From the NCBI GenBank assembly GCA_023379025.1, contig JAMCTH010000007.1, positions 1-63,128 on the forward strand: a stretch of DNA of 63,128 bases, read 5' to 3'. This DNA is from Patescibacteria group bacterium (GTDB lineage Bacteria > Patescibacteriota > Microgenomatia > UBA10105 > UBA927). A program made the position numbers and the translations under genes. A model generated the notes under the pieces. That model searched no databases. It was not told the DNA's origin and saw nothing but the letters and a program-made list of their open reading frames with translations. Positions 3,400 through 63,113 of the stretch are shown piece after piece. Position 1 is the stretch's first letter. Each line of letters begins with the position of its first letter.

Positions 3400-3515
3400 C
3401 CTTCGGTCTCTTGAGCGAGATGGAACGACCCGATCCCTTTCCGAACTCGGAAGTCAAACATCTCAGCGCCAACAATAGTACCGCCGCAAGGCGGCATGAA
3501 GATAGGTCGAGGCCG
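3400..3515 (+). rRNA. rrf: 5S rRNA
   Basis: The 5S signature CCCGATCCCTTTCCGAACTCGGAAGTCAAAC lies at 3429-3459. Helix I CTTCGGTCT (3401-3409) pairs with AGATAGGTCGAGG (~3500-3513). The gene is embedded in a long flanking stem, CCCGTAAAGATTTTGCGGTAAGA (3376-3398) with GATCTTAACGCAGAATCTTACGGG (3518-3541). The ends are approximate. Confidence 0.72.
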
Positions 3516-3548
3516 GGGATCTTAACGCAGAATCTTACGGGTCAGGCA

Positions 3549-3595
3549 TTCCGGACTCGGCAGCGAAACGCGTCAGCGCCAACAATACCTCCGCC
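3549..3595 (+). other. Degenerate partial 5S-like duplicate (loop C to helix IV segment)
   Basis: TTCCGGACTCGGCAGCGAAACGCGTCAGCGCCAACAATACCTCCGCC parallels 5S positions TTCCGAACTCGGAAGTCAAACATCTCAGCGCCAACAATAGTACCGCC. No helix I partner is visible. Confidence 0.5.
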
Positions 3596-3733
3596 TGTTT
3601 TATTCGTCGGTTTACCATCTGTCCTTCTTGCAGGCACGGCGGCGTTGAGATCACAGACAAGGCATTTGCCGATATGTACCGGTAAAAAACAGAATCCGCC
3701 TGCCTCCGGGCGGCACATGTAGTGTTATTGTGG

Positions 3734-3991
3734 TTATTTATATACTCCTTGCCGGTGCTCAATAGCGACGATCTCAACAGTGCTTTTTTTGGCATTGAAC
3801 GTGTAAATAATCCGGTAATCGCCAAGGCGATACTTAAAAAAATCCTTGAGATCTCCGCGTAATTTCATTCCTGCCAGAGGATTTTGCTGTAAAACAAGAA
3901 GCGAGTGGTGAATCCGCTTCCGAATATGTTTAGGCAATTTTTGCGCTCTTTTTTGTATGTCCTCGGGGAGTATGACTACGTTTGCGGGCAT
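3734..3991 (-). CDS. RelE/ParE-family type II toxin
   Basis: The 85-aa protein carries ...NPLAGMKLRGDLKDFFKYRLGDYRIIYTFNAKKSTVEIVAIEHRQGVY, the typical RelE/ParE C-terminal pattern. It lies downstream of a Phd-like ORF. Confidence 0.8.
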   Translation of the reverse strand: MPANVVILPEDIQKRAQKLPKHIRKRIHHSLLVLQQNPLAGMKLRGDLKDFFKYRLGDYRIIYTFNAKKSTVEIVAIEHRQGVYK

Positions 3992-4247
3992 GATATCCTT
4001 TCAGAAATGTTTCCAGTGTAACATATTTGCCTTCACGGATTTGTTTTTGAGCTTTACGAATAGCTGGCATAGTGTGTTGGAGGGTATAGATGGTTTCTTC
4101 AAGCTCATCCAGATAGTCGGGTGAGATGAGCGTGGCTTTTACTTTTCCTTGTTTTGTGAGGTCGATACGCAAATATTCCTCATCTACTTTATCAACAAGG
4201 GATAAAAAAATTTTTCGCGCCGCAGTGACCGGAAGAATATATGTCAT
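3930..4247 (-). CDS. Phd/YefM-family antitoxin
   Basis: The N-terminus reads ILPVTAARKIFLSLVDKVDEEYLRIDLTKQGKVKATLISPDYLDELEETIYTL. Its 3' end overlaps the toxin start by 62 nt, so the basic C-terminal tail may be a read-through extension. Confidence 0.7.
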   Translation of the reverse strand: MTYILPVTAARKIFLSLVDKVDEEYLRIDLTKQGKVKATLISPDYLDELEETIYTLQHTMPAIRKAQKQIREGKYVTLETFLKGYHARKRSHTPRGHTKKSAKIA

Positions 4248-4255
4248 ACGTAATA

Positions 4256-4284
4256 AGTGTACAGAAAAATGTACGTAGTGTCAA
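4256..4284 (-). promoter_or_regulatory. Sigma70-like promoter of the phd/relE pair (leaderless-type)
   Basis: On the minus strand: TTGACA (4284-4279), a 17-nt spacer, TACACT (4261-4256), then 8 nt to the ATG at 4247. TGTAC repeats overlap the promoter. Confidence 0.5.
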
Positions 4285-4402
4285 ATGTTTACGTGCAGAG
4301 GTGCTCATTTGTGTACAATTCGATCATGGAAAACGTGGATGTTATCGTTGATACACGTTCGTTTTTGCGGCGGGCGGATAAGGAGGTATTGAGCGCTCCC
4401 CC

Positions 4403-4431
4403 TTGAGACTCAAAGTAAAAAAGGGTATACT
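4403..4431 (+). promoter_or_regulatory. Sigma70-like promoter upstream of the S1 gene
   Basis: TTGAGA (4403-4408), a 17-nt spacer, TATACT (4426-4431), about 30 nt upstream of the ATG at 4464. Confidence 0.45.
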
Positions 4432-4463
4432 ACGGTATCCTAATCGAAAGGCGGTATTCATGG

Positions 4464-5657
4464 ATGGCAAAAACCACAATCAAAAATCAAAAAGCAAAAA
4501 TCAAAAATAAAGAAGGAAAGAGCAAAGACGCATCTTCCGCTCATCCCATCTCCCAATTACCTTCTCTCAAGAAATCCCCGCAGACCATGGAGGAGCTTCT
4601 CGCAGCGACCGGGTACAGGCTGACCGGCCTCAAAAAAGGTGACGTCGTGGAAGGGACTATAGCCCGTATTTCTCCCAAAGAAATGACGATAGACATCGGC
4701 AGGAAGACGGATGCCGTGGTTATCGACCGCGAACTTGAGAACTACAAGGACATCCTGATGCATCTCAATGTCGGCGAGAAGGTGTCGGCGCAGGTGATTG
4801 TTGAGGAAAATGACCGGGGCCAGCCCGTCCTGTCTCTCCGGAAGAGTATTTTTGAAAAACGCTGGAACGATCTGGCTGCTGCACAGAAAAACGGGACTCC
4901 TATTGAAGTATTGTTTAAGGAACCGGTTCGCGGAGGAATACTTGCGGAATACGGGGGGCTGCGCGGATACATACCCCAGTCACAGCTTGACGCCGCCACC
5001 CTCAAGCAGGCGGACAAACTGTCGGGGAGGAAGGCGGACGTCAAAGTGCTTGAAGTAGACCGGGAAACCAACCGGCTCGTCTTTTCCCAGCGTGCAGTTG
5101 CAGAAGGGGAGACCCTTGCCAAACAAAAAGAGCTTCTGGCGCTTCTGAAGGTAGACGATACCGTTCAGGCGGCGGTGACGGGTATCGTACCGTTCGGGGT
5201 CTTTGCCAGGATACACGTCATCAGGAAAGACGGGACGACGGAGGAAGTGGAAGGCCTTATCCACATATCGGAAATTGCCTGGGAAAAAGTAGGTGACCCC
5301 GGCCAGTATCTGAAGACGGGGGACAGCATCAAGGTAAAGATCATCGGACTTGATACGCAAACCGGAAAGATCACGCTTTCCCTCAAGCAACTGCTGCCGG
5401 ACCCATGGGAGCACGTCCTCGACCAGTTTCCCAAGGAAAGCATGGTTAAGGGAACGGTATCGCGGGTATCGCCGATCGGCATATTCGTGACGCTTCTGCC
5501 GGGTGTTGAAGGACTCATCCATATCAGCAAAATTTCTCCGGGAGAAGAACCGAAAGAAGGAGACGAAATCACCTGTCTCGTCGAGGACGTGCAGCCGGAC
5601 AAGCGGAAGATAAGCCTCAGCATGGCCTTAACGGAAAAACCGATCGGATACCGGTAA
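4464..5657 (+). CDS. rpsA: 30S ribosomal protein S1-like (four S1 domains)
   Basis: S1/OB repeats recur: GDVVEGTIARISPKEMTIDIG, GTPIEVLFKEPVRGGILAEYGGLRGYIPQSQL, DDTVQAAVTGIVPFGVFARI, ESMVKGTVSRVSPIGIFVTLLPGVEGLIHISKIS. Confidence 0.85.
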   Translation: MAKTTIKNQKAKIKNKEGKSKDASSAHPISQLPSLKKSPQTMEELLAATGYRLTGLKKGDVVEGTIARISPKEMTIDIGRKTDAVVIDRELENYKDILMHLNVGEKVSAQVIVEENDRGQPVLSLRKSIFEKRWNDLAAAQKNGTPIEVLFKEPVRGGILAEYGGLRGYIPQSQLDAATLKQADKLSGRKADVKVLEVDRETNRLVFSQRAVAEGETLAKQKELLALLKVDDTVQAAVTGIVPFGVFARIHVIRKDGTTEEVEGLIHISEIAWEKVGDPGQYLKTGDSIKVKIIGLDTQTGKITLSLKQLLPDPWEHVLDQFPKESMVKGTVSRVSPIGIFVTLLPGVEGLIHISKISPGEEPKEGDEITCLVEDVQPDKRKISLSMALTEKPIGYR

Positions 5658-5690
5658 CGGAGCGCGCGCGTATAGTGTAGAATAGCCTCA

Positions 5691-6998
5691 ATGAAACCTC
5701 GGTCCAGTTTTGTGTGTCAGCAGTGCGGGTATGAGAGCCCCCAGTGGTACGGGAGGTGCCCGCAGTGCGGAGAGTGGAATACGATGGTTGAGACGGTGAA
5801 AGAGACGGGGAGAGGGGGAGATGGGAAGATAGGAAGAGTAAGAGAGCAAGTCAAACCGCAGAAACTTTCTGATGTCCGGCATATCGAGAAAAACCGGTTA
5901 AAGAGTGGATATGGAGAGTTTGACCGGGTCATGGGAGGGGGTATCGTGCCCGGCTCGGTGACGCTCCTGGCCGGGGATCCGGGGATCGGCAAATCGACCC
6001 TCCTTCTTCACGTTCTCGGGAAAATCGGCGGCCTCTACGTGTCGGGCGAAGAATCGGCAGAACAGGTTAAGCTCCGGGCAAAACGCCTGGGGATTGCCGG
6101 GGACAACATTACGATCATGACGGAAACCGACGCCGGCGCGATAGCCGACACCATGGCGTCGTCACCCCGCACGTTCCCATTGGTGATCGTTGATTCCATC
6201 CAGACGCTTTCCACCGAGGAATTAAGCGGCATGGCCGGTACGGTCGGGCAGATCCGCCATTCGGCGGAACTCATCATTGCCCAGGCCAAAGGCCGGGGCA
6301 TACCGGTCGTCATCATCGGCCACGTGACGAAAGAAGGGGAGATCGCGGGACCGAAAGTGCTTGAACACATGGTAGATACCGTTTTGTATCTTGAAGGTGA
6401 ACGGTTTGCCAACGCACGAATCCTCCGGACGCTTAAAAACCGGTTCGGACCGATTGAGGAAGTCGGCATCTTCGAGATGGCGGAAAAAGGACTAATAGAG
6501 ATAGATAATCCTTCTAAGATATTTCTTGAAGACCGGGTAAAAAATGTTTCCGGGTCGGTCGTGACCATCATTATGGAAGGGACCAGGCCGCTTCTGGTCG
6601 AAATCCAGGCGTTAGTAGTCCCAAGTCAACTCGCAGTACCGCGTAGAGTTGCCAACGGTTTTGATTACAACCGATTACAACTCCTTGTCGCGATTCTCCA
6701 GAAACGAATGAATATCGCGCTTGGAACGTTTGATGTCTTTGTCAATGTCAGTGGCGGACTCAGAATATCTGAACCATCAGCGGATCTCGCGGTAATGCTT
6801 GCCATCGTTTCTTCTTTCAAAAATAGACCAATCGATCCGAATCTCGCTGTTTTTGGCGAAGTCGGGCTTCTCGGAGAAATCCGTCGGGTTGAAGAAGAGG
6901 ATAGGAAAATCAAAGAAGGCAAACGTCTTGGGTTCACGACAATCGTAAGTCCTCAAACCACACGGAATCTCACACAGGCCATAGAGATTTTGAGTTAA
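5691..6998 (+). CDS. radA: DNA repair protein RadA/Sms
   Basis: N-terminal zinc ribbon CQQCGYESPQWYGRCPQCGEWNT, Walker A GDPGIGKSTLLL, the KNRFG motif (LKNRFGPIEE), and a Lon-like C-terminal domain. Confidence 0.95.
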   Translation: MKPRSSFVCQQCGYESPQWYGRCPQCGEWNTMVETVKETGRGGDGKIGRVREQVKPQKLSDVRHIEKNRLKSGYGEFDRVMGGGIVPGSVTLLAGDPGIGKSTLLLHVLGKIGGLYVSGEESAEQVKLRAKRLGIAGDNITIMTETDAGAIADTMASSPRTFPLVIVDSIQTLSTEELSGMAGTVGQIRHSAELIIAQAKGRGIPVVIIGHVTKEGEIAGPKVLEHMVDTVLYLEGERFANARILRTLKNRFGPIEEVGIFEMAEKGLIEIDNPSKIFLEDRVKNVSGSVVTIIMEGTRPLLVEIQALVVPSQLAVPRRVANGFDYNRLQLLVAILQKRMNIALGTFDVFVNVSGGLRISEPSADLAVMLAIVSSFKNRPIDPNLAVFGEVGLLGEIRRVEEEDRKIKEGKRLGFTTIVSPQTTRNLTQAIEILS

Positions 6999-7138
6999 TG
7001 AAGAGAAGACAAGGTTGGACCAAGTCAGAGCCTCTTTCATCGTATCATGAAGAATTGCCAGTCTTTTCCCAAGAGGTACGTGTGCTACAATTCCCATAAG
7101 GGCGGGCAGGGAACCTTCCTGTCCCGCAGGACGAACTT

Positions 7139-8047
7139 ATGAAACAGAAAGGAAAAGAGGCGGTCGGCAAGGGAAAGCATTCCGAAAACGTACCGGTCGT
7201 AAAAGAGCGCGTGAGTGCTCCGGGTTCCGCCGGGGAGAAAAAACAGCCCCTGGAAGCTTTTACCAAGCCGACGTCGCAGTTTACCCAGGCGCTTGCCCGG
7301 GAAATCGTCAAAAATCTCGCCAATATCGGCCAGATGACGGCCCGGCCGTTTCACCGCGCGCCGCCCGCGGTAAAAAAGCCGGCAGCTCCAGCGCCTCTTG
7401 GCGACTATCCGATCTATGTGGATACCAGCGTCCTCATCGACGGCAGGATCCTGCCGATCGTCAACAGCGGCTTTCTCGTGGGGACGCTCCTCATCCCGCG
7501 GTTTGTCCTGGACGAAGTCCAGCACATCGCCGATTCGGCCGACAGCCTCCGGCGGGCAAAAGGGAGGCGGGGCCTTGAAGTCGTTGAAAAACTGAAGGAT
7601 CAGAAGGGGAACAGCCTGGTCAAGACAAAAATTATTACCGATGACGTGCCCGCTGTGCCCGAAGTAGATCACAAGCTCGTGGAACTGGTAAAAGCGGCAA
7701 ACAACACGTCACGGCGGCTGCTCCGGCGGGCAGATGTGCGGGGAATTGCCCGGCTACTGACCGTTGATTTCAACCTGGGGCAATATGCCCGGGCCCAGGG
7801 GGTAAAAGTCATGAACGTCAACGACATAGCCCAGGCTCTGAAAGTCGCCCTCATGGCAGGGGAAGAACTGATGCTAAAAATTACCCACGAAGGGAAAGAG
7901 CGCGAGCAGGGCGTCGGATATCTCCCGGACGGCACCATGGTCGTAGTTGACGGTGCCAAGATACACCTGGGTCAGGAGATAGCCGTCGTTATCACAAAAG
8001 TCCACCAGACGGCAGCGGGACAGCTTTTCTTTGCCCGGCTGAAATAG
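7139..8047 (+). CDS. PIN/TRAM domain protein (YacL-like)
   Basis: PIN segment IYVDTSVLIDGRILPIVNSGFL...PRFVLDEVQHIADS and C-terminal TRAM-like GVGYLPDGTMVVVDGAKIHLGQEIAVVITKVHQTAAGQLFFARL. It follows radA, as in Firmicutes. Confidence 0.8.
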   Translation: MKQKGKEAVGKGKHSENVPVVKERVSAPGSAGEKKQPLEAFTKPTSQFTQALAREIVKNLANIGQMTARPFHRAPPAVKKPAAPAPLGDYPIYVDTSVLIDGRILPIVNSGFLVGTLLIPRFVLDEVQHIADSADSLRRAKGRRGLEVVEKLKDQKGNSLVKTKIITDDVPAVPEVDHKLVELVKAANNTSRRLLRRADVRGIARLLTVDFNLGQYARAQGVKVMNVNDIAQALKVALMAGEELMLKITHEGKEREQGVGYLPDGTMVVVDGAKIHLGQEIAVVITKVHQTAAGQLFFARLK

Positions 8048-18151: not shown

Positions 18152-18222
18152 GGGCCCGTAGTATACCGGTAGAACGACTCCATGGCATGGAGTAGAAAGG
18201 GGTTCGATTCCCCTCGGGTCCA
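18152..18222 (+). tRNA. tRNA-Ala (anticodon GGC)
   Basis: Acceptor GGGCCCG/CGGGTCC with a G3.U70 pair, anticodon stem ACTCC/GGAGT, loop ATGGCAT, T arm AGGGG-TTCGATT-CCCCT, discriminator A. CCA is not encoded. Confidence 0.9.
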
Positions 18223-18233
18223 CCCAATATTCT

Positions 18234-53360: not shown

Positions 53361-53394
53361 CAACCCGCCGGGTTGAATAGGTTTAAACCTCTTC
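53361..53394. repeat. REP-like inverted repeat, left copy, flanking the Y1 transposase
   Basis: CAACCCGCCGGGTTGAATAGGTTTAAACCTCTTC contains the palindrome AACCCGCCGGGTT. It matches the reverse complement of 54103-54136 at 30 of 34 positions. Confidence 0.8.
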
Positions 53395-54060
53395 CAGAAC
53401 CAGGTGTTTGATTTTTTCTAATTGTTTCGCCAGGGCGATCTGATCACTGACGAAGTCCCTGTATGGGTGTTTGTCAGAGAAATGGGAAAGAACCGTACGG
53501 GTTTCCAACCATGGGACAGGAGGAGTTCCTCCATAGGCAGGGAGCGATGACCAGCGATACGTCCAGAGGTCAGCTTCATCGATGATGCCTGAGGAAACGG
53601 GGTTGAGATGGATATAGCGGGATACGTGAAGCAGCTGTTCGTCAGTTTCGATCGGTACGGCCTTAAACGGCCCCTGGTAGAGCGGTCCGACCCTGTCCTG
53701 CTTTTTATTGAAATATTTAGCGTAGCCGTTGGCGATAGTAGAGATTGCAGTGATAATGCCATGATCAACGTTTTGCCTCACGATCAGGTGAAAGTGGTTG
53801 GGCATGAGGCAGTAGGCCAGAATGTCTACGCCGGGAGGGGTTGTTCGGAGCTTTGCCGCATAGTATTGGCGTTCGTTCACGGGCAGGGTGAGAAAATGGG
53901 AGAAGCTTCTCGGCACATCCATAAAACGGTAATACTCGATAAGCAGTGTGAAACGGCGGTAATCACGGGCAGAGAGGAAAATATTCCGCCGTTCAACGCC
54001 GCGGTTAAAGACGTGATAGACGTAGCTGTTGCGGAAGGCAATCGGGCGGGGTGAAGCCAT
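53383..54060 (-). CDS. REP-associated tyrosine transposase (RAYT) / IS200-like Y1 transposase
   Basis: HUH motif PNHFHLIV and catalytic Tyr context SRYIHLNPV, with N-terminal YHVFNRGVERRNIF. The gene is bracketed by inverted REP-like repeats. Confidence 0.85.
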   Translation of the reverse strand: MASPRPIAFRNSYVYHVFNRGVERRNIFLSARDYRRFTLLIEYYRFMDVPRSFSHFLTLPVNERQYYAAKLRTTPPGVDILAYCLMPNHFHLIVRQNVDHGIITAISTIANGYAKYFNKKQDRVGPLYQGPFKAVPIETDEQLLHVSRYIHLNPVSSGIIDEADLWTYRWSSLPAYGGTPPVPWLETRTVLSHFSDKHPYRDFVSDQIALAKQLEKIKHLVLEEV

Positions 54061-54102
54061 GAGTTCAGCCTAGCGTATCAGGGCCTGTCTGTCAACTGTC
54101 AA

Positions 54103-54136
54103 GAAGAGGTTTAAATCTAAGAAACCCGGCGGGTTG
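54103..54136. repeat. REP-like inverted repeat, right copy
   Basis: GAAGAGGTTTAAATCTAAGAAACCCGGCGGGTTG. The direct heptamer CTGTCAA x2 lies immediately upstream (54088-54101). Confidence 0.8.
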
Positions 54137-54152
54137 AAGTGTGAAGCGGGGA

Positions 54153-57100
54153 TTAGTTTACTACCCACCAGTTGAACGCGATAGGCGTGTGTATCGGGTG
54201 GTCGATGCCGACGGTAAAGCCGGTGCCCGGGGTGGAAGCCGCTACATAGAGGACCTGGTTTTGTGTAGAAGTAATCGGTGTGATATAGATAAGCGATCGA
54301 TCAGTTACCTGTGATGTAGTGATGGTTATGTCTGTTGTATTTGCGCTCAACGTTGCCTGCCCTACGGTCGTGTCCGCCGGCACGGCTGAACCCGAGGCCG
54401 CGGCGGCTTCCGCGATTTGGAGTTTCCGGAAAATGCCGGCTCCCGAGGCAACCACGTCGCCCCCTGCAGAGAGCCCCCCGGCAAACTGCGCCGATCCCGA
54501 GGCAGTGACCGCCGCAACCACCTGTCCCTGCGCCCCCCGGATGATGAGGTTCCCGAAGTGGGTGAGGAGCCCGGCTGAACCCGAGGCCGAGCCGGACGCA
54601 AGCTCCGTGGAAGAGAGGTCAAGCGTGAGGTCGCCCCCGGCCGGGGCAATGGTATCCACCCCCAGGACTCCGCCGACGGCCAGGTTGCCGGACACGGCGA
54701 GGTCTCCGTTCACCATGACACTTCCGAGAGGACTGACCACGAGGGTCCCTCCCAGGATATCGACGCTTGCCAGCCGGTCTTTCTCAAGAAAGAGGGTCGG
54801 TCCGAAGGTACTCAGGCCCGAATCTCCGATCCGGACCGGTCCGGCAGCGGTCAGCCCTCCGGCGATACTCGTCATCCCGAGCGAGGTATTCCCGAGGACC
54901 GAGAGATTCTGCGTGACGGAAAGGGTCTGTCCGGTCAGGGTCCCGGCTATGGCGGCAAGCTCCGGCGGGGGACTACTCACCGTATCCCCGGAGAGGAGAG
55001 CCAGGATTGCCGAGGCGGTCGCATCCAGGCCGCTCGGCTGGGGGGTAGCCGCAGGGGTCGCGAACACGATCCGGGTGATGTTCTCAATCGTGGTGGCCGA
55101 CACCGTAGCCGCGGTCACGGTGGATGCCGCCAGGTCCGTAATATCCCCGAACCGCGTCACGATCCGGTCGGCATATAACGTCCCCGAGAACGTAGCGGAA
55201 CCACGGACATCCAGCAGTACGTCATCGCGAGGGCTCGCAGAGCCCGTGGCGATCTCTGGAGATTGCTTCGTCGCTTCGCTTCTCGCAATGACAAGACGGG
55301 AAGCAGTGAGCGTTCCACTAAAGCTGGCATTCCCCAGGTTATCAAAAGTTGCCGCGGGCGTACCTTCCCGGTTGTAGATCCCGAATGTCTGGCCTTGCCC
55401 GAGCCGGACGGCTACCCCGGCACTCTCACTTGCCTCACTGCTTAAAGGCGAGATCACGTCGGTATGAAGCTCTCCGATATCAGCTACCGGCGAGATGATC
55501 CGGTCGGACTGGAGGAGGCCGGTTTTCACCCACAGGCTTTGGATAAGGTCGACGTTGGTCTTGCTTAAGCTGTCCCAGTTTTCCTTGAGCCAGGCAGAAG
55601 CCGATGCTATGATGGATTGGGGAGTGGGCCCGGGTTGGTCCGGAGCCAGCCTCTCAAGCATGGTTCCACGGGTTCGATTCCCGTCGGGTCCACTCCCTAC
55701 TTGACCATTGACAACTCCTGATGAGGATGCTACACTATTTTCGCTTGAGAGGCTGGTATCACGGATCATTCCGGAACCGCTAAAGCTGGTGGACAGGCTT
55801 AACAGGTCAGTTTCCGAACCTGAGGAGGCCCCTAGAGAATCCGCGAAAGCGGATTTTTTGGTGCCGCCATTCAAAAATCCATCCTGCGTCACATCGCCGG
55901 TGTAGTAGCCCAGGTGGACAAAAGCCTCAATGGTGGAAGAACCACACGCATTATTCGTCATTCTGGCTTGTCCAGACGCCATCCCGGCTTGACCGGGAAC
56001 AGATTCTGGAGTCGCTTCACTCCCCAGAATGACGGAGGGAGTACAAGGAGTCCATGCTTCCAAAGCCTTCGCAACGGTGTAACCGTAGCTAGTGGCTTTT
56101 TGGGCCATGCCGGGATGGGTCGCGGAGGAAGTCAGGAAATCGCCAATTTCAATCGGCGCCGAATCCGGTGCAATTTTAACAGGAACACGTCCAGCCAAAG
56201 CCAACATCCGGCTGTCTGCTTTGCCACTGTCTCCATCCACGCTGCCCATAATCACACCCGGGTTAGTAGAAATAATCCCCAACAGTTTCGAATCATACGG
56301 TTTATCCGCCTTCCTCATCACTCCCTTCGTCGTCACTTCTTCTTCCGTCATTCTGGCTTGTCCAGAATCCGAAGTCCCGGCTTGACCGGGAACAGATCCT
56401 GGAGTCGCTTCGCTCCCCAGGATGACGCGGGTGGGGGAAATTGAGACAACATCTCCCGCTTCAATACTCTTGTCACCAGTAACGTAATATTCTGCCAAAT
56501 CAGCCGAGGTGGTATTGGTGGCGCCAAGATAAAGGGTACCGTAGTTATAAGTGGGAGTGAGATAACGCACTATTACAACTCCAGAACCACCATTACCACC
56601 TGTATAAGGACCTCCAGTACAACCACTCCAACCTGAATTGCAAGCACCCATGCCACCATTGCCAAGACCATTTGTCCCATTAGTGGGGGGAACACCCGGT
56701 GTGCTTCCTCCTGTGGCGTAAGTAACAGAAGAACCAGAGATAGAAGATGCTCTTCCAGCGCCACCACTATATTGGACGCCAGCCCCTCCCGCTCCTCCTC
56801 CGCCACCACCGTTACTATTACCACCACCTGCATTACCATAGCCGGTTAGTGGACTTTGTGTGGTTTGTGTTGCAGACCCTCCGTTGCTGCCTGCGCTTCC
56901 GCCACCGGAACCGCCATTGAGTCCTGCCGTACTACTTCCACCACCACCACCACCATAGGCGGTATAGCTTCCAAAAGAAGAATTCCCTCCGTTAGAGCCC
57001 GTATATCCGTTACCGATTGGTCCGCCATTTCCGCCGTTTCCAACAGTTACTGTTTGAGCTCCAGTTACTCCTGTTAAGGAGCCTTCTAAATAGCCTCCTG

Positions 57101-60100
57101 CACCTCCACCACCCCCATGGTATCCACTGCCACTACCGGCTCCTCCACCACCACCACCCACAATGAGAACGTCGACATTCACGGCTGCGCTTGGAGTGAA
57201 AGTTCCAGAAGTAGTGAAAGTATGAGTGGTATAACCGGAGGCGGTAGCAATCGTTCCACCAGTGGCAAAAAACTTAGGAGTTGTATCGAATCTACCAGCT
57301 GTATTCCCACTACTATCCAAAAAGTAAATACTGCCTGTTCCGGTTGAACCGGTGCCGGTGCCTCCTGCCTGGAGCTGGAGTTTGCCGGAGGAGTTAATGA
57401 TCGAGGGACCGGAGGTCCAGGAGATGGAGTTACTGTCTATGGTGGTTGAGGCAGAGCCGATTTTGAGCGAGGCGGAGACCGTGGCATGGCCCTGGGAGTC
57501 CACCCCAAAGACATCAGAACCACTACTTTGCAATTTAATCAAATTGCCCCACGAGCCCGTTTTATTCACCCAAATAGAGTTCATATTGGAATTACTGTCC
57601 ACATCCGCTGCAGAGGGAGCGAGGGAGACCGTGCCGGAGTTTCTTCCCAACCCGCCGGTGATGACATCAAGACGCAAATTTTGGGCCGAGCCGGAATAAT
57701 TCCACAACCGCACCGTGTTGGTGTCCACCTGTTTAATCTGGAAAGCCTGGGTAGAAACATCCAGCCGCAAATTCTGGGTGGAACCGGAATAATTATAGAG
57801 CCTGGTGGTATTGGCATCCACCTGGACAATTTTGAAAGGACTCAAAGAACCGGTAATATATCTGACAATAACAATCCCCGAACCACCGTTGCCGCCCGCG
57901 TAGTGTGTCCCATTGTAACTCGCGCTACCGCCGCCGCCGCCCGTATTGGCAGTTCCGTTGTTCCCGGCTCCTGATGTATTTGGTGCGCTACCTCCGCCAC
58001 CAAGGCCACCAGAACCTCCTGTTCCCGCACGCGTTCCACCACCACCTCCACCACCATAGTAAGTCGCTGATCCAGAAATACTAGAAGAAATCCCGTTGCC
58101 ACCGTTTCCACCGGTAGTGCCGCTCCCGTTTCCACCTACAGCCCCCGCACCGCCCCCACCTCCTCCTGAATTATCATTGTTTCCACCAACACCACCGTTG
58201 TTACCCTGTCCAGCAGTCCCTGTACCATACGAAGTACCAGTACGGCCACCCCCTCCACCGGAGCCGCCATTACCCGCATCAGCAAGACCACCACCTATAG
58301 CAGTAAGAGTGCCAAAAACACTATTACCACCCTGCGAGCCAAATCCTTCAGGAGCAGTACCACCTGCACCACCATTGCCAACAGTTACTGTATATGCTTG
58401 TGGGGTAACGGAAAATCCTGTTCCTGTGAGCACACCACCCCCACCTCCACCACCGCCTAATGTCCCCTTGCCACCGCCCCCACCACCAACCACAAGATAC
58501 TCAACAAGCCCGGCCCCATTAGGTGTGAATGTTCCGCTGCTTGTGAAAGTGTGGATATTGTAACCATTAGCAGTCGTTATTGTCCCGCCGGTGGCGGAAG
58601 AGCTGGCAATGTTTGTTGACTCCCATAAAGAGGTAGCCGTGTTATAGAACCACCCGCTTGCCAAAAGATCATTGGTTTGCTGATTGTGAACAACTTCCAC
58701 ATATGAACCATTGGCAACACTGGCATTTGTTGCAGAAATGACGCCGGATTCGGTGGCCGTGGAAATGTCTTTCCACTGGCCGTTTAAGTTCACCCACCCG
58801 TCACTGACCACATCACTGGTGTTCTGATTATGGGCCACATCTATATAGGAGCCGTTGGCAACCGAGGCGTTGGTATTGGTATATAGTCCATTTCCTCCGG
58901 GAGCTCCGGCAATGGCGTCGCTTCCGATCCAGGCGATGCCATATCTTGTCACATACGTATTTGTTTTTGTAGATCCTCTGGCAATGACAAACTTTGTTTT
59001 TAAGGAACTGCCTATAGCATTGAACTGACAGAAGTATTCGTATTCAGTGGGGGATTGGGAGGTGTCGGTATTGGTTTGATTGCATTGGTAATAATTGGAG
59101 CCACCGTCATTAGAGGCCCAAACCGTCACCGTATTGGACGTATCAGACGAATCCAGCGTATACTGTGCCCACAAGTAGGCTTGGGAGAAACTTTCGGCAG
59201 TCGTCGTAGTTTTGGAAATAAAATTGCCGGAGGTGGCGGTGGCATAGGAATCAACACCGATAGATTTCACCCCCGAGGTGGCCGAACCGGCGGCTTCAAG
59301 ATTATAGGAAACGGCCAGGGATTTGGTGTCGTCATTGGCCAAAAGAGTGCCGCCGGTTGGAGTGTTGGCGGTTTTGTCATAGGTTTTAATGTTGGTGTCT
59401 GAAGTTAAATCAATCTGGGAGACCCGGCCGTTGGTGGCGTCATTTGTCCCTACATACAGATATTGATTGTTAAAATCAACTCTGGCATCGCCGACGGTGT
59501 TGGTGGAACCGCCAAGCTGTTGGTTGCTGTCTGCCGCGCCTCCTCCCAAGGTCGTCGCATGGCTCTGCAAAGCCCGATACCCAACTTCATACATGTGCTT
59601 GATTTGACCAGCAGAAAGGGCAGTGGCAGTCACAAAGGGTTCGTCAATGGTACCGTTAATATATGCGCCTTGGTTAGTACTTCCCCCAACTACCAAAGGA
59701 ACGGCCGCGGTATTTGGCGCACTTGATGAAGCTGAAGCCATCAGTGTGCCGTCAATATATACTCTTTTGATCGAACCATCCCAAGTTGCAACCACATGGT
59801 GCCAATTACCGTCATTAAGTTTAACTGCAGTAGTCTGGGTATCACCAATACCAGCGTAGGAAAAATCAAGCGTATTGCTGCTCGCATAATATAGAATTTC
59901 CCACCCAACATTTGCACCGGCGTGACTGATTAAACCAGCATATGTTGCTGCAGTGCTTGTAGTTTTTAACCAAGAGCCAGCAGAAAATGACCCAGTTGTG
60001 AAGTTGTAATTAGTGGCACTTGCACTACAGGCACCTCCGGTTGAATCAGAACAAAGATAGCCAGTTCCGCCCAGAGTTAATCCTGTTCCTCTTACCCCAG

Positions 60101-63100
60101 AGGCGTATGTGGCAGAAGCGACTTTATTGTAAAGAGTTTGGGCTTTCACAGACGCATCAGAGACTGTTCCGGCCACGGCTAAAGTGCCACTGCCATTTAA
60201 CGGCCACATGCCGCGAATATCTCCCACCATTTCTTCAGAAATGTAGTCTTTGGTGTAGTATTTGACGGAACCGTTGGCTTCGTCCTTACCTTCATTCGTA
60301 TTAGCACCTGATTGTTTTTCCTGAATAACATTAAGGCCGTAGTCCGTTGAAACATATACTGTGTTTGATTTTCCATCAATCGTAGAAGTTCCTTGTGTCG
60401 CATAAATTTTAATGTTATTTGTCGTATTGGGGTAAAGGCCGAGAATGGATAACCCCTTACTGGAAGTGTCACTTCTATATTCACAATCTTTACCGTTATA
60501 TAATTCCCAATCGCCTGTAGCTCCAGCATTGTATTTACAGTGGATGATGGGAGTAGTTCCCAAATGCGCGATGTAAAGATTACCATTTGATAACAGGTAA
60601 ACTGCCTTAGTTACGTTCTCATTCGTACGAGTTCCGTTTGCAACCGTCTGGTCAGTTTCATTGATGACCGAAACCCCACCGTCAGTCCCCACCGCCACAT
60701 ACGTTCTTGGGCTGACTTGGCCAGTGGCGGTCCAGGTGTAACATTGGTATGTATTAGAAAAATATGATGTTGAAAGACTCAACCGAGCAGTAAAATTAGT
60801 ATTAGTGATAGCATAAGCTTCAGCGCCAATAGCTGCATTTCCAGAATTAGTGGCACAATCGCTTAATTTCACCGGTGCGGACGCGCTATACCCGTTAGCG
60901 GTTAGATTAACTCCCGGGATACCATTAAATTTATAAGGAAAATTGACACTTTCGGAGATATAGGCAGTTCCGTTTGCCTGTATATATCCCCATCCACTTA
61001 CAGTCATGGTTTGAGTTGGTTGGTTAGGGATGACGGCGGCGGAGACGTCGTTGACGACCACATTGACAATAGCTGTGCTGTCATTTACTGTTGTTGAATT
61101 TAAAGCGGAATTCCGTTGCGAAATAACACCATTATATTTTCTTAAACCATTGGGGGATCCATAATATGAGTAACCTGAGTCTGAATAAAACCTAATATTT
61201 CCAGCTGCTCCTGTTGTTCCATTATTGGCCGCAGCATAGATCACACCATTTAATGCAGTTACAGATTTTAGTGCGGTTGAAGAATAACCCCAGTTGTCAA
61301 TAATGGCGTGACCACCAGAATCACTATTGAATCTCATCCATAGTTTTTGAGTATCAGCATCTATGATATCCAGATAAGAATCTTCTCCAACGATATAACT
61401 TCTTTCCGGAAAAGCCGCTTTCGCGCCGCGGGTGGAACTGGCGGGTTCCACCACCCACGATGCGATTTTGAAAACATCACCGGTGTTGTAGTGATAATTT
61501 GAGCCGGCGAGGCTGGTGAAGGTGACACTGACGCCCGTCCCAGTCAGTGCCTGACTGGCTCCGGGCGTAATTGTTACATTGCTGGCATTGTTACCATTGT
61601 AATCGGTCCAAGAAAAAGTCGTGGGGGAGGCGATGGTGATGTAGATAGTTCTCGCGGCCGCGCTCGAACTGTAAGAACCAGAGACTTTTAAGAGAGAACC
61701 GTTGTAAACCGTTGACAGGTTAGGATTAGGGCGATTGGGGGAATTAGGGGAATTGGGGGAAGAGGGCCAAATTGTATCGTTTTGACTGAAACTGGCACTC
61801 GTTGTCGCGACGGAGAGGGTAATCCCGTTATACCAATTAGGGTCAATGCCTAGTTCCACCTGAACTTGAGGTGAGGAATCCCGGGTTCTGTCATAGTAGA
61901 AGACCTTATTTACGGTGTTACTGCCCAAATACGTATTGCCGGCGTTGTCAGTGGTGGAAGTGGCAAAGGTTTGACCACCGATGAGGCCGGCACGATAGGG
62001 GGCAGTAGGCGTATTTATATTGTTCGAAGCCGAAGGCTGAGAACTTCTCGCTTCGCTCGAAGAATATTGCACCGGGCCGGAGACGGTCGTATTGGCAGAA
62101 TCTGTCTTCGTGGTATCGGAGAGGTTGTCAAAATACAGGCCCTTGGGGGCGATGTTCTGGTTGGGAGAAGTTCCGGCGTTAACTGCGGTGTAGTTATTAG
62201 CCAGAAGCCAGTATTCGTTGTGCTTTGAACCTTTGTCAATGGAAGCGGCAGCAGTGACCTGGATCTGGGGGATGAAGACCATGGTGATGTAGCCGGAGCC
62301 GCTGGTACTCGTGTCCGTCACGGTGCCGATTAAACCGTCAAACTGCTTGGCGCTCGTGACGGCCTGGCCCGCGACATCGCTTGTGAAGATATAGTCGCCG
62401 CGGGCGACGGTCGTGGTATTTTTGATGGTGACCGTGGTCGAGCCGCCGATTTTGACGGAACAGGAGGCGGAGGCGGCGCAGGAAGTGAGGATGACCCCGT
62501 ATGTACCCTTTTTATATGGTGTAGTCGTAGTCGTCACCGAGGTATTGGCCGACGTGTCAAAGATGACGAGGGTCCGGGCCGCAAGCGTGCCGCCGCTCGT
62601 ATTGGTAGCCGAGATGATGGTCGGGTCGGAGAGGGCGTTCCAGGCCGAGCCGTTGTAGAGATAGAGGTTGTTGTCGGTCGTGTTGTAGTAGAGGGCGCCC
62701 GATCCTACGGCCGTGGGAGCGGAGGCGTAGCCCCCGACCTGCACCTGGCCGCCGGAGATGATGTCGCCCGCGGTTTTGAGTGACGTGCCGGCTGAGGCCG
62801 GGTCGAGGTAATAGGCGGTGTTGGCGCTGTCCTGGAATTTTTGGGCGGTCAGGACGCCGTTACTGTCCAGATTGTACGTTGAGCCGTTGAAGTAAATGGA
62901 GCCGGTGCCGTTGGGATCGATCGTGAGGGACTGGTTGGTGCCGCCGGTCGTAAGGGTTGCGGTGGCGCTGTTGTAGCCGAGCGTGAGGTCGCTTGCGGAG
63001 ATATCGCCGGTTGCGCCGTTTAAGAGGATGAGGGCCGAGGCCGTCGAGGTGGTCGAGCGGGGAACGGCGCCCGTACTTCCCAGGGCAATGCTCTGGTCCA

Positions 63101-63113
63101 CGACCGACAACAA
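54153..63113 (-). CDS. Giant (2,986-aa) surface or fibre-like protein: fibre-like N-terminus, LamG domain, two glycine-rich modules, repeat-rich C-terminal region
   Basis: A single uninterrupted ORF of about 9 kb. It contains a LamG/ConA-like segment (about 59570-60225; ...NDGNWHHVVATWDGSIKRVYIDG...). Two glycine-rich modules run GGTI.TA.GY..HTFT.SGTF...VGGGGGG...GGNGGSG.VIVRY (about 57853-58590 and 56565-57272). Tandem NASVANGSY.(D/E)V.HNQ repeats are also present. The start is non-ATG (TTG 63113 or GTG 63101) with in-frame stops just upstream, and no signal peptide is evident. Confidence 0.85.
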   Translation of the reverse strand: MLSVVDQSIALGSTGAVPRSTTSTASALILLNGATGDISASDLTLGYNSATATLTTGGTNQSLTIDPNGTGSIYFNGSTYNLDSNGVLTAQKFQDSANTAYYLDPASAGTSLKTAGDIISGGQVQVGGYASAPTAVGSGALYYNTTDNNLYLYNGSAWNALSDPTIISATNTSGGTLAARTLVIFDTSANTSVTTTTTPYKKGTYGVILTSCAASASCSVKIGGSTTVTIKNTTTVARGDYIFTSDVAGQAVTSAKQFDGLIGTVTDTSTSGSGYITMVFIPQIQVTAAASIDKGSKHNEYWLLANNYTAVNAGTSPNQNIAPKGLYFDNLSDTTKTDSANTTVSGPVQYSSSEARSSQPSASNNINTPTAPYRAGLIGGQTFATSTTDNAGNTYLGSNTVNKVFYYDRTRDSSPQVQVELGIDPNWYNGITLSVATTSASFSQNDTIWPSSPNSPNSPNRPNPNLSTVYNGSLLKVSGSYSSSAAARTIYITIASPTTFSWTDYNGNNASNVTITPGASQALTGTGVSVTFTSLAGSNYHYNTGDVFKIASWVVEPASSTRGAKAAFPERSYIVGEDSYLDIIDADTQKLWMRFNSDSGGHAIIDNWGYSSTALKSVTALNGVIYAAANNGTTGAAGNIRFYSDSGYSYYGSPNGLRKYNGVISQRNSALNSTTVNDSTAIVNVVVNDVSAAVIPNQPTQTMTVSGWGYIQANGTAYISESVNFPYKFNGIPGVNLTANGYSASAPVKLSDCATNSGNAAIGAEAYAITNTNFTARLSLSTSYFSNTYQCYTWTATGQVSPRTYVAVGTDGGVSVINETDQTVANGTRTNENVTKAVYLLSNGNLYIAHLGTTPIIHCKYNAGATGDWELYNGKDCEYRSDTSSKGLSILGLYPNTTNNIKIYATQGTSTIDGKSNTVYVSTDYGLNVIQEKQSGANTNEGKDEANGSVKYYTKDYISEEMVGDIRGMWPLNGSGTLAVAGTVSDASVKAQTLYNKVASATYASGVRGTGLTLGGTGYLCSDSTGGACSASATNYNFTTGSFSAGSWLKTTSTAATYAGLISHAGANVGWEILYYASSNTLDFSYAGIGDTQTTAVKLNDGNWHHVVATWDGSIKRVYIDGTLMASASSSAPNTAAVPLVVGGSTNQGAYINGTIDEPFVTATALSAGQIKHMYEVGYRALQSHATTLGGGAADSNQQLGGSTNTVGDARVDFNNQYLYVGTNDATNGRVSQIDLTSDTNIKTYDKTANTPTGGTLLANDDTKSLAVSYNLEAAGSATSGVKSIGVDSYATATSGNFISKTTTTAESFSQAYLWAQYTLDSSDTSNTVTVWASNDGGSNYYQCNQTNTDTSQSPTEYEYFCQFNAIGSSLKTKFVIARGSTKTNTYVTRYGIAWIGSDAIAGAPGGNGLYTNTNASVANGSYIDVAHNQNTSDVVSDGWVNLNGQWKDISTATESGVISATNASVANGSYVEVVHNQQTNDLLASGWFYNTATSLWESTNIASSSATGGTITTANGYNIHTFTSSGTFTPNGAGLVEYLVVGGGGGGKGTLGGGGGGGGVLTGTGFSVTPQAYTVTVGNGGAGGTAPEGFGSQGGNSVFGTLTAIGGGLADAGNGGSGGGGGRTGTSYGTGTAGQGNNGGVGGNNDNSGGGGGGAGAVGGNGSGTTGGNGGNGISSSISGSATYYGGGGGGGTRAGTGGSGGLGGGGSAPNTSGAGNNGTANTGGGGGSASYNGTHYAGGNGGSGIVIVRYITGSLSPFKIVQVDANTTRLYNYSGSTQNLRLDVSTQAFQIKQVDTNTVRLWNYSGSAQNLRLDVITGGLGRNSGTVSLAPSAADVDSNSNMNSIWVNKTGSWGNLIKLQSSGSDVFGVDSQGHATVSASLKIGSASTTIDSNSISWTSGPSIINSSGKLQLQAGGTGTGSTGTGSIYFLDSSGNTAGRFDTTPKFFATGGTIATASGYTTHTFTTSGTFTPSAAVNVDVLIVGGGGGGAGSGSGYHGGGGGAGGYLEGSLTGVTGAQTVTVGNGGNGGPIGNGYTGSNGGNSSFGSYTAYGGGGGGSSTAGLNGGSGGGSAGSNGGSATQTTQSPLTGYGNAGGGNSNGGGGGGAGGAGVQYSGGAGRASSISGSSVTYATGGSTPGVPPTNGTNGLGNGGMGACNSGWSGCTGGPYTGGNGGSGVVIVRYLTPTYNYGTLYLGATNTTSADLAEYYVTGDKSIEAGDVVSISPTRVILGSEATPGSVPGQAGTSDSGQARMTEEEVTTKGVMRKADKPYDSKLLGIISTNPGVIMGSVDGDSGKADSRMLALAGRVPVKIAPDSAPIEIGDFLTSSATHPGMAQKATSYGYTVAKALEAWTPCTPSVILGSEATPESVPGQAGMASGQARMTNNACGSSTIEAFVHLGYYTGDVTQDGFLNGGTKKSAFADSLGASSGSETDLLSLSTSFSGSGMIRDTSLSSENSVASSSGVVNGQVGSGPDGNRTRGTMLERLAPDQPGPTPQSIIASASAWLKENWDSLSKTNVDLIQSLWVKTGLLQSDRIISPVADIGELHTDVISPLSSEASESAGVAVRLGQGQTFGIYNREGTPAATFDNLGNASFSGTLTASRLVIARSEATKQSPEIATGSASPRDDVLLDVRGSATFSGTLYADRIVTRFGDITDLAASTVTAATVSATTIENITRIVFATPAATPQPSGLDATASAILALLSGDTVSSPPPELAAIAGTLTGQTLSVTQNLSVLGNTSLGMTSIAGGLTAAGPVRIGDSGLSTFGPTLFLEKDRLASVDILGGTLVVSPLGSVMVNGDLAVSGNLAVGGVLGVDTIAPAGGDLTLDLSSTELASGSASGSAGLLTHFGNLIIRGAQGQVVAAVTASGSAQFAGGLSAGGDVVASGAGIFRKLQIAEAAAASGSAVPADTTVGQATLSANTTDITITTSQVTDRSLIYITPITSTQNQVLYVAASTPGTGFTVGIDHPIHTPIAFNWWVVN
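55221..55292. repeat. 72-nt palindromic mini-element in frame in the giant ORF
   Basis: The termini GTCATCGCGAG...CTCGCAATGAC are inverted, with internal hairpins GGGCTCGCAGAGCCC and GCGATCTCTGGAGATTGC. It translates as VIARSEATKQSPEIATGSASPRDD. Confidence 0.8.
55626..55692 (+). other. tRNA-Ala-like minihelix (acceptor plus T arm) antisense within the giant ORF
   Basis: GGGCCCG...ACGGG-TTCGATT-CCCGT-CGGGTCC-A. The acceptor stem is identical to tRNA-Ala(GGC) at 18152, including G3.U70. Only 35 nt lie between the acceptor and the T arm, and no anticodon arm can be folded. Confidence 0.6.
55956..56034. repeat. 79-nt palindromic mini-element in frame in the giant ORF (copy B)
   Basis: CGTCATTCTGGCTTGTCCAGA...CCCGGCTTGACCGGG...CTGGAGTCGCTTCACTCCCCAGAATGACG, with terminal inverted repeats CGTCATTCTGG/CCAGAATGACG. 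Confidence 0.85.
56346..56427. repeat. 82-nt palindromic mini-element in frame in the giant ORF (copy A)
   Basis: Same family and orientation as 55956-56034. It differs by a few substitutions and a 3-nt length change, so the reading frame is preserved. Confidence 0.85.
62653..62682. repeat. Inverted repeat, inner copy (encodes TTDNNLYLYN of the giant protein)
   Basis: TTGTAGAGATAGAGGTTGTTGTCGGTCGTG is the perfect reverse complement of 63099-63128. Confidence 0.9.

Follow-up and report, generated by a model that had tools for sequence, protein, structure and literature searches.

CGTC-tagged REPs are hairpins whose stem starts with AT and which carry a short 3' tail and an unpaired terminal CGTC tag, TGTC or CCTC being tolerated (Di Nocera et al. 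2013, PMC3733652). The defined families, CGTC-1 to CGTC-4, have stems of 8-9 bp and loops of 4-5 nt, and dimers, mostly inverted, occur in frame within ORFs, where they encode 20-30 aa. That paper, which cites the RPEs of Ogata et al., counts the Rickettsia elements RPE-4 and RPE-6 among the CGTC-tagged REPs. For a second system, Chenal et al. (2025, Nat Commun, PMC11893778) described the architecture NTS-ssnA-NTS together with single-strand cleavage. The cut made by Ssn enzymes falls in single-stranded DNA, a few bases 5' of the cognate hairpin, and is strand-specific; neither double-stranded DNA nor RNA is cut. Their clade is delimited by CDD cd10448 and by a blastp E<1e-10 to N. meningitidis SsnA; the published search string for the Ssn-related motif (SRM) is HGTCWYN(0-2)YYVSBRHN(0-5)WNVSBRGN(0-2)RNCYNB (Chenal 2025). 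NTS/SsnA is reported to modulate transformation in Neisseria (PMC11893778).

How does the present locus compare? Its three elements agree with the CGTC-tagged REP / Ssn-related-motif system as published (Di Nocera 2013; Chenal 2025), the in-frame inserts of 20-30 aa included. They are a clean example of a phenomenon already known from other bacteria and represent no new kind of system.

Three hairpin pairs in a giant reading frame

The window, the whole stretch of 63,128 nt that was analysed, comes from an uncultured Patescibacteria (CPR) bacterium. It contains a gene for a giant protein with a Laminin_G_3 domain, two Gly_rich_2 domains and a K1-lyase_C-like C-terminus; the 5' end of the ORF is uncertain because the contig ends there. 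Elements A, B and C are all read through in this frame.

54153..63113, minus strand: giant-protein gene, single open frame, 2,986 aa, surface/fibre-like
55220..55293, unstranded: element C (second type); GTCAT..ATGAC core 55221-55292, 72 nt; aa 2608-2631; peptide VIARSEATKQSPEIATGSASPRDD
55220-55256, plus strand: C hairpin 1, stem ATCGC/GCGAT
55259-55293, minus strand: C hairpin 2, stem ATTGC/GCAAT
55956..56034, unstranded: element A, 79 nt; aa 2361-2386; peptide VILGSEATPESVPGQAGMASGQARMT; in a variable Cys..Cys loop, after ALEAW
55956..55978, plus strand: A left hairpin, 3' arm decayed (CCAGACG)
55979..56000, plus strand: A middle, relic of a third hairpin (TCCCGG stem)
56002..56034, minus strand: A right hairpin; CGTC tag, stem ATTCTGG, loop GGAGTGAAGCGACT, stem CCAGAAT, then C
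56035..56345, minus strand: module between A and B, YD..LGIISTNPG..LAGRVPVK..GDFLTSS..KALEAW, conserved
56346..56427, unstranded: element B, 82 nt; aa 2230-2256; peptide VILGSEATPGSVPGQAGTSDSGQARMT; in the loop following the GDVVSIS strand
56346..56369, plus strand: B left hairpin; CGTC tag, stem ATTCTGG, loop CTTGT, stem CCAGAAT, then C
56373..56393, plus strand: B middle, relic of a third hairpin (AGTC-CCGG CTTGA CCGG-GAAC)
56395..56427, minus strand: B right hairpin; CGTC tag, stem ATCCTGG, 14-nt loop GGAGCGAAGCGACT, stem CCAGGAT, then C

All three are built from two YGTCAT-tagged hairpins in inverted orientation, tags outward, to which A and B add the relic of a third hairpin; in related genomes the counterpart of the relic in B is TGTCATTCCCGGCTTGACCGGGAATC. 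The termini are CGTCATTCTGG/CCAGAATGACG in A and B and GTCATCGCGAG/CTCGCAATGAC in C. A and B carry the CGTC tag at either outer end; in C the tag is CGTC at one end (55220) and TGTC at the other (reverse complement of 55290-55293). In all 14 copies examined GTCAT follows a C or a T, and the repeat unit is longer by one base per end, YGTCAT...ATGACR. A and B point the same way and share 89% identity, with one 3-nt indel between them. The right stem of B (ATCCTGG/CCAGGAT) differs from that of A (ATTCTGG/CCAGAAT) by compensatory changes, and the two type-C stems do likewise. These changes keep the individual hairpins rather than a long-range terminal pairing.

In position, length, frame, orientation and inverted termini the elements are as the sequence-only reading had described them, and A and B do bracket the LAGRVPVK/GDFLTSS module. 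Its division into two families stands in part: A/B and C are distinct types, but they are types within a single superfamily, since they have a 23-nt stretch and one architecture in common.

Like the SRMs of Neisseria (NTS/dRS3), the hairpins have a (C/T)GTCAT tag, a stem starting with AT and a C right after the palindrome. Like CGTC REPs, they carry a terminal CGTC or TGTC tag, form inverted dimers, occur as in-frame copies of 20-30 aa, sometimes two per gene, and are associated with no classical transposase. Their dimensions set them apart from both. Stems are of 7 bp (ATTCTGG, A/B) or about 5 bp (ATTGC/ATCGC, C), against the 8-9 bp of CGTC REPs; loops are of 5 nt in the left hairpin of A and B only and of 12-23 nt elsewhere, against 4-5 nt. 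Only that left hairpin comes close to CGTC-1 to CGTC-4. The SRM string matches none of the six hairpins of A, B and C (0/6), because stem sequence and length differ and the loops are long; it does match a canonical NTS-like pair at C9:197779-197849 in the same genome. The case for membership is therefore made by the architecture and by the cassette described below. Compared with the SRM/Ssn reports, the host phylum is a different one, Patescibacteria. The Rfam search of 55000-56700 returned no known RNA family matching A, B or C; its sole match was a sub-threshold tRNA at 55626-55692, where ARAGORN finds no tRNA.

A GIY-YIG cassette with the same ends

Does any gene share the termini of A and B? 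One does, a GIY-YIG ORF, which is the only gene that they bound.

C3:105586-105948: cassette, 363 nt; 11-nt termini identical to those of A and B; encloses the GIY-YIG ORF
C3:105588-105905: cassette ORF, 105 codons, single-domain GIY-YIG; 96 aa align to relatives

The ATG lies 4 nt past one hairpin and the TGA stop within the other terminus. The product matches Pfam GIY-YIG (E 1.6e-13) and no other domain; NCBIfam holds no family for it, and its best PDB match, UPF0213 BH0048, is weak (E 0.05). Inverted hairpins on both sides of a single-domain GIY-YIG gene of ~95 aa are the SRM-ssn-SRM arrangement; such a cognate nuclease cassette distinguishes this genome from the CGTC REP case. Among 80 nuclease relatives, the closest (72, 65, 62 and 60% identity) have this ATTCTGG stem in their flanks as well; L037, L038, L040 and L115 carry it. 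More distant ones among the 80 bear other stems, including the canonical Neisseria-type ATTCCCGC; NTS-type hairpins with that stem flank relatives at 54-60% identity. The type-C stem ATTGCGAG flanks two cassettes in other genomes (L083 and L099), and no type-C cassette occurs in this one. By these shared ends the A/B-type elements are linked to a putative Ssn-type GIY-YIG cassette.

The pattern exceeds chance. Pairs of GTCAT..ATGAC with 11-nt complementary arms number 7 genome-wide, against 0-4, mostly 0, in 20 shuffles, and GTCAT-tagged hairpins number 25, against 1-8. Family members have nhmmer E-values of 1e-14 to 1e-19, and the elements fold with z-scores of -2.3 to -4.3. Copy number is low, about 10 pairs, at least 6 of them in frame within genes, which also separates this genome from those of the SRM/Ssn reports. 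All copies are inverted pairs, and six in-frame genic copies encode 20-27 aa. Across the phylum the distribution is patchy: the hairpin is present in 38 of 401 Patescibacteria genomes, with 1-83 copies each, and the control pattern in 0.

Insertion status and rival explanations

Are the elements original parts of the gene? The giant protein has homologues (P0001-P0006 among those found). In an alignment of eight, which are 36-65% identical to it over the aligned module with local matches up to 71%, sites A and B are gapped in 8/8, and element C is missing as well. A, B and C are insertions: eight homologues with flanks up to 71% identical are without them. The best module homologue from a metagenome search for closer ones is only 57% identical, so there is no near-isogenic empty site to compare, and the contigs of three mine-tailings metagenome runs hold no empty-site allele from a near-identical strain.

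We consider it likely that A, B and C are non-autonomous hairpin-repeat clusters of the CGTC-tagged REP / SRM superfamily, that is, gene-less cassette ends that were inserted after a lineage split and are passively translated. A and B would each be the two ends of a hairpin-ssn-hairpin cassette minus its gene, and C the same for a type-C cassette. Insertion would postdate the split of this lineage from its nearest sampled relatives, and the elements would have been kept since each lengthens the frame by complete codons and introduces no stop.

Might the hairpins instead be domesticated and kept for a benefit to the host? They could be sites at which cutting by Ssn influences recombination or transformation, a role proposed for Neisseria NTS and in keeping with the reported effect of NTS/SsnA there, or A and B could act as direct repeats through which the module is lost or exchanged in frame, yielding surface variation. 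The sequence-only reading had suggested such a deletion, and the geometry suits it: A and B share identical runs of 21 and 23 nt (longest 23) at in-frame offsets of 390 and 393 nt. Assembly depth in the metagenomes also shifts several-fold along the C-terminal part of the giant gene, which suggests strain variation. However, no deleted junction is seen in the contigs of the three runs, which are assembler output that drops rare variants, so that rare deleted forms may escape. Moreover, the bracketed module is found in every homologue, the depth breaks in run X2 do not coincide with A or B, and further copies of these elements lie in housekeeping enzymes, for which variation would have no obvious use. 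We judge domestication improbable.

Still less probable is it that the elements are classical MITEs, their termini being TIRs bound by a transposase encoded elsewhere. They do resemble MITEs in being small and non-autonomous, with inverted termini of 11 nt and ends common to a longer, gene-bearing copy. A RAYT-like Y1_Tnp gene also lies nearby.

53383-54060: RAYT-like Y1_Tnp gene between inverted hairpin repeats of its own (unit 53361-54138); distance to the stop of the giant gene 93 nt

The core of those repeats, AACCCGCCGGGTT, is unrelated to the GTCAT elements, and on that ground the neighbouring RAYT was rejected as mobiliser. A likeness to REPIN/RAYT systems (REPtron) remains, in that short hairpin pairs occur genome-wide together with one small nuclease or transposase gene flanked by the same hairpins, and the unit 53361-54138 beside the giant gene is itself an instance of a REPtron; but the tag here is CGTC rather than GTAG, and the enzyme a hydrolytic GIY-YIG nuclease rather than an HUH/Y1 transposase. 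Against MITEs stand the lack of a DDE transposase, the enclosure of the GIY-YIG ORF alone, and no transposase, by the same termini, and the absence of direct repeats or a target-site duplication around any of 14 copies. The compensatory changes, too, preserve single hairpins. The inverted termini were accordingly rejected as TIRs: they are the tag and stem of two separately folding hairpins of the CGTC-REP/SRM type.

Could the inserts be genuine protein segments, linkers selected at the protein level in which the palindromic DNA is incidental? The frame is intact through all three elements, and the peptides, of 24-27 aa, are rich in Gly, Ser, Ala and Pro, as linkers might be. But they are missing from all homologues, and three unrelated genes of the genome (class-II aaRS-like, GATase_3 and UvrD helicase) carry in-frame members of this nucleotide family, which is read there in two frames (VILGSEATPES and PSFWGASATPES) and has intergenic copies. 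These findings bear out the earlier view that the peptides are translated repeat DNA and not a protein domain, and the conditions named for its refutation fail, further copies being present and the peptides not being kept by homologues; selection as linkers is very unlikely, and the peptides are probably disordered loops, translated passively.

Least credible of all is an assembly artefact or repeat-formed chimera: Logan contigs do break within C and where A and B end, which is usual for repeats, and depth in run X1 is 15.6 against 47, a three-fold difference, on the two sides of the break in C, but a 3,096-nt X1 contig covers 55264-56900, A and B included, with zero differences, and the protein is colinear with its homologues across all three sites. 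Given that three-fold difference, the population may hold other junctions at element C.

Mobilisation and consequences

If A, B and C are gene-less cassette ends, how might they have moved? We infer that Ssn cutting near a hairpin, followed by host replication or repair, would copy hairpin pairs to new sites. To our knowledge, no Ssn enzyme has ever been shown to transpose DNA, and we know of no obvious strand-transfer chemistry for a hydrolytic GIY-YIG nuclease. The flanks of the 14 copies hold no target motif apart from the tag-derived Y/R bases. The GTCAT..ATGAC core lengths of these copies are 0 or 2 mod 3, therefore no single fixed insertion boundary fits all in-frame copies.

More tentatively, hairpin-ssn-hairpin cassettes might be autonomous mobile elements of an undemonstrated mechanistic class, with miniature hairpin-pair derivatives which, in Patescibacteria, would keep hitting the same permissive loops of giant surface proteins; we hold this to be possible, though doubtful. 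The minimal GIY-YIG single-strand nuclease would nick just outside the outward tags, and the copies would be made by host replication or repair. Were this true, the cassettes would regularly supply lineage-specific peptide inserts as well as direct repeats able to reshuffle modules.

For the spread of CGTC-type repeats and of Rickettsia-style 'protein-coding palindromes', the locus offers a compact, internally controlled case: one small genome unites a cassette presumed to be autonomous, about ten miniature derivatives (six or more in frame) and two sister copies in one gene. The locus also shows that giant CPR surface proteins owe some of their variation in length and loops to selfish repeat DNA and not to protein-level innovation, which is relevant to their annotation and modelling. 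The landing sites here would be three length-variable surface loops of the fibre-like protein. An AlphaFold2 model of the module and inserts (9-sequence alignment) has a mean pLDDT of 52, is confident in the GRVPVK..GDFLTSS core only, with inserts <50, and is too poor to place the inserts as surface loops or to justify a fold search.

Other members of the protein family bear in-frame elements of their own, namely P0002, P0004 and the metagenomic homologues L121, L132, L139 and L146, a pattern that points to recurrent colonisation. In L132 and L139 a type-C element occupies the same loop as element B does here; on the autonomous-cassette reading, the loop after GDVVSIS would have been struck by two element types in two lineages.

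The elements as insertions in the giant gene

The genome comprises 1.11 Mb in 12 contigs, the window being its contig C7. The elements A and B, of one type, and C, of a second, related type, lie exactly where the sequence-only reading had placed them, and their translations match the peptides that it quoted.

54153-63113, minus strand: giant ORF, a single open frame across the region, encoding a surface/fibre-like protein of 2,986 aa
55956-56034: element A, 79 nt, translated as aa 2361-2386
56346-56427: element B, 82 nt, translated as aa 2230-2256
55221-55292: element C, 72 nt, translated as aa 2608-2631

As had been claimed of the two like copies, A and B are co-oriented and differ in length by 3 nt (a single indel); they are 89% identical. 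Each of the three elements folds better than its own shuffles (z −2.3 to −4.3). The final 30 nt of the contig form the outer arm of a perfect inverted repeat (62653-62682/63099-63128), which resembles an assembly fold-back. The start of the giant ORF (TTG 63113) is accordingly in doubt, with possible 5′ truncation of the gene. The database homologue P0001 is longer at the N terminus by about 600 residues.

Do homologues of the giant protein contain these elements? Six homologues from the database search are 29–55% identical over the C-terminal 837 aa, and closer ones are found among 60 related genomes (71–72% in G019:C43, 63% local identity in G046:C10); the relatives compared from the genome search are Patescibacteria of 0.5–2 Mb. 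In the alignment of the module, the segment 56035-56345 bracketed by A and B, gaps face both A and B in all eight of the eight homologues. Site B directly follows the strand GDVVSIS, where the loop of the relatives has 0–7 aa (e.g. VLDDGNQ), while site A follows ALEAW, in a loop that G019 lacks and that two cysteines flank in G046 (C-NASSVPSHAEGLP-C). Element C occupies a variable spacer, 0–35 aa in length, between GNAxxSGxL and SGTLYADRIV, and its residues were found in no homologue compared. We conclude that A, B and C are insertions, lacking in the homologues among which the sequence-only reading had proposed to look for empty sites. The predicted structure of the module (mean pLDDT 52; the GRVPVK..GDFLTSS core alone confident, the inserts below 50) is too weak to add information.

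Insertion recurs within the gene family. Type-C-like peptides are found in two database homologues (P0002 and P0004), at positions other than that in the window protein, and in-frame elements occur in four (L121, L132, L139 and L146) of 80 metagenomic module homologues. L132 and L139 each have a type-C element ([VIAIPSAVEGEAISLSGIATSSDVHRSPRND]) two residues past GDVVSIS, in the same loop as element B; this loop is either permissive or a preferred target.

Paired hairpins and the nuclease cassette

The elements had been described as palindromes with inverted termini and internal hairpins. The hairpins stand, but the simple palindrome does not: each element is an inverted pair of self-folding hairpins with a (C/T)GTC tag outermost. 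The left hairpin of A/B is CGTC-ATTCTGG-CTTGT-CCAGAAT-C, the right one, on the opposite strand, CGTC-ATTCTGG-GGAGCGAAGCGACT-CCAGAAT-C. In B the right stem is instead ATCCTGG/CCAGGAT, a double change that preserves the hairpin and weakens pairing with the far terminus, and the type-C stems, ATTGC/GCAAT and ATCGC/GCGAT, show a likewise compensated difference. It follows that the conserved unit is the single hairpin rather than the terminal inverted repeat. At the middle of A and B stands TCCCGGCTTGACCGGGAA, which every other copy in the genome lacks; relatives' genomes have this 18-mer as the core of an intact tagged hairpin, TGTCATTCCCGGCTTGACCGGGAATC, and A and B are thus three-hairpin clusters with a decayed middle unit. 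Being mutually closest, they suggest that one arose as a copy of its partner, or that both derive from one lost master.

Other arrangements occur in relatives. In loci of G028 and G026 (L029–L036) a TCCCGG-stem hairpin pair sits within a repeat of about 130 nt with its own inverted ends (GAGTGAATTCAGT...ACTGAACAAACTC), which looks like a composite element around a pair of Ssn-related motifs (SRMs). In G011:C57 and G026:C20 ATTCTGG hairpins stand tag-to-tag (..CCAGAATGACGTCATTCTGG..), the opposite of the tags-outward pairs of the window.

What accompanies such hairpins? The window genome contains an A/B-type cassette, that is, a hairpin–nuclease gene–hairpin unit, of 363 nt (C3:105586-105948), which starts CGTCATTCTGG and ends CCAGAATGACG, its 11-nt termini identical to those of A and B. 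Its two hairpins enclose a 105-codon ORF with its ATG 4 nt past one hairpin and its TGA stop within the opposite terminus; 96 aa align with relatives, and the sole Pfam match is GIY-YIG (E 1.6e-13). Relatives of this protein, in a scan of one genome per species, number 146. Identity to it is 50–72% in the best 80, whose sources are Patescibacteria, Proteobacteria, Omnitrophota, Bacteroidota and others. When tested strictly, 37 of these 80 genes have a GTCAT-tagged hairpin no more than 80 nt away, 16 of them on both sides. Stem and nuclease correspond: among the best 80, the four closest hairpin-bearing relatives (72, 65, 62 and 60% identity) have the ATTCTGG stem too, and farther ones have different stems, ATTCCCGC among them. 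The type-C stem ATTGCGAG is found on two cassettes, in a Patescibacteria MAG (L083) and an Aminicenantes MAG (L099); the right end of the former is much like the C9:22775 copy of the window genome, in which no type-C cassette was found. Since cassettes share both the A/B and the type-C hairpins, both element types are gene-less cassette ends. A second small GIY-YIG gene (C11:33519-33740, in the region C11:33300-34115), 43% identical to the first, is flanked by another repeat family (..ATTCTTCGAAC.. / ..GTTCGAACAATAT), inside one copy of which contig C11 ends.

The CGTC-tagged REPs defined by Di Nocera et al., which include Rickettsia RPE-4 and RPE-6 and Neisseria dRS3, are mainly inverted dimers with no transposase known; intragenic in-frame copies encode 20–30 aa, at times two per gene (PMC3733652). 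Chenal et al. studied the Neisseria NTS (CGTCATTCCCGCGMAVGCGGGAATCYRG) and related SRMs, found on either side of ssnA, a 94-aa single-domain GIY-YIG gene. SsnA and its homologues cleave single-stranded DNA strand-specifically beside their own hairpin, binding and cutting depending most on the C that follows the palindrome and on the bases that precede it; the NTS–ssnA–NTS layout is insertion-sequence-like, its mobility a proposal (PMC11893778). A, B and C have in common with these systems the tag, AT-start stems, C tail, inverted pairs, flanking of a minimal GIY-YIG gene and in-frame behaviour. However, they do not match the published SRM search string, and their stem and loop dimensions are outside those of the four defined CGTC families; we therefore file them as divergent new members, in no defined sub-family. 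The system is of a known kind, with a new host phylum and divergent hairpins, and our literature search found no paper on these repeats in candidate-phyla-radiation bacteria. The finding of the sequence-only reading is real and its interpretation essentially right. An intergenic pair at C9:197779-197849, TGTCATTCCCGCGAAGGCGGGAATCCAG and inverted TGTCATCCCCGGCCTGATCGGGGATCCAT, is canonically Neisseria-NTS-like; its hairpins are the only ones in the genome that convincingly match the SRM string.

How might the elements move? An Ssn-type nuclease would nick single-stranded DNA just beyond the outward-facing tags, and replication or repair could then copy the hairpin pair to another place. No target motif, target-site duplication or fixed boundary was found around the copies, and the GTCAT..ATGAC core length of in-frame copies is 0 or 2 mod 3, which is more consistent with selection for any insertion that is in frame overall than with precise cut-and-paste. 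The system is valuable mainly because it offers a compact natural setting in which to test whether Ssn cassettes move. Could a transposase drive the elements as MITEs instead? One lies adjacent:

53383-54060, minus strand: Y1_Tnp gene (IS200-like, RAYT-type), in a unit (53361-54138) directly downstream of the giant gene

Its flanking hairpins are unrelated, however, and this together with the lack of target-site duplications makes such an origin unlikely. The gene is flanked by inverted repeats of about 34 nt with the hairpin AACCCGCCGGGTT, and the unit is a second hairpin-plus-nuclease unit in the window, unrelated to the GTCAT elements.

Copies across the genome

Scanned for GTCAT..ATGAC pairs whose 11-nt arms are complementary, the genome yields seven, as against 0–4, mostly 0, in 20 shuffles. 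Further copies were sought by blastn and nhmmer over the whole genome:

C9:219453-219522: A/B-type copy
C5:25271-25328: A/B-type copy
C3:176376-176449: A/B-type copy
C10:45720-45794: A/B-type copy
C9:22775-22848: second type-C copy

Both types thus recur. Three of these copies, too, are in frame, within a class-II aminoacyl-tRNA-synthetase-like gene (..INKS[VILGSEATPESDLKDRFWTSQNDD]KKKH..), a GATase_3 gene ([PSFWGASATPESDSGHARMT]; identical DNA, partly different reading frame) and a UvrD-type helicase ([VIASEAKQSQINKRSPRRKNGLAMT]), and in all three the Pfam domain match runs across the insert. The copies outside these genes and the giant gene lie between ORFs. With three elements in the giant gene and three in others, at least six of about ten genomic pairs are read through. 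That the peptides are translated repeat DNA, as had been proposed, is borne out by the copies in unrelated genes and between ORFs; that they serve a function at the protein level is unlikely, since non-coding and frame-shifted copies exist. Distribution is patchy: 38 of 401 Patescibacteria genomes have the ATTCTGG hairpin, each in 1–83 copies (reversed control pattern, 0).

Possible recombination between A and B

A and B are direct repeats: they share two uninterrupted identical stretches, of 21 nt and 23 nt, offset by 390 and 393 nt, and recombination between them would keep the frame. The earlier idea of an in-frame deletion holds in its geometry and is otherwise hypothetical: neither the deletion junction nor empty sites were found in those contigs of three mine-tailings metagenome runs (X1–X3) that contain this sequence, these being assembler contigs, with rare variants possible. 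The module is conserved in all homologues, and its deletion is therefore probably not neutral. We consider it improbable that the elements benefit the host through recombination control or module shuffling. An assembly chimera is scarcely credible, given the colinearity with homologues and a 3,096-nt metagenome contig that spans A and B with zero differences.

Across 54900-56900, in the C-terminal portion of the giant gene, assembly depth in X1–X3 varies several-fold, being 15.6 left of 55289 and 47 right of it in X1, and 6.5, 7, 12, 21 and 27 in X2; this suggests co-existing strains with differing C-terminal ends. The summed depth over 55256-55293, the 38-nt half of element C, is 2,300–7,600, which makes this half an abundant repeat community-wide.

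A tRNA-like segment (55626-55692, plus strand) lies antisense within the giant ORF, translated ..GPDGNRTRGT..; it scores 26.3 bits with the Rfam tRNA model (threshold 29), and ARAGORN calls no tRNA there. Its 3′ part matches the genuine tRNA-Ala(GGC) (18200-18223) at 23 of 24 nt. In a homologue (G006:C85; L011 763-773) the same T-loop motif, GGTTCGATTCC, recurs at the equivalent site, likewise antisense but in another frame (..DPTGIEPV..).
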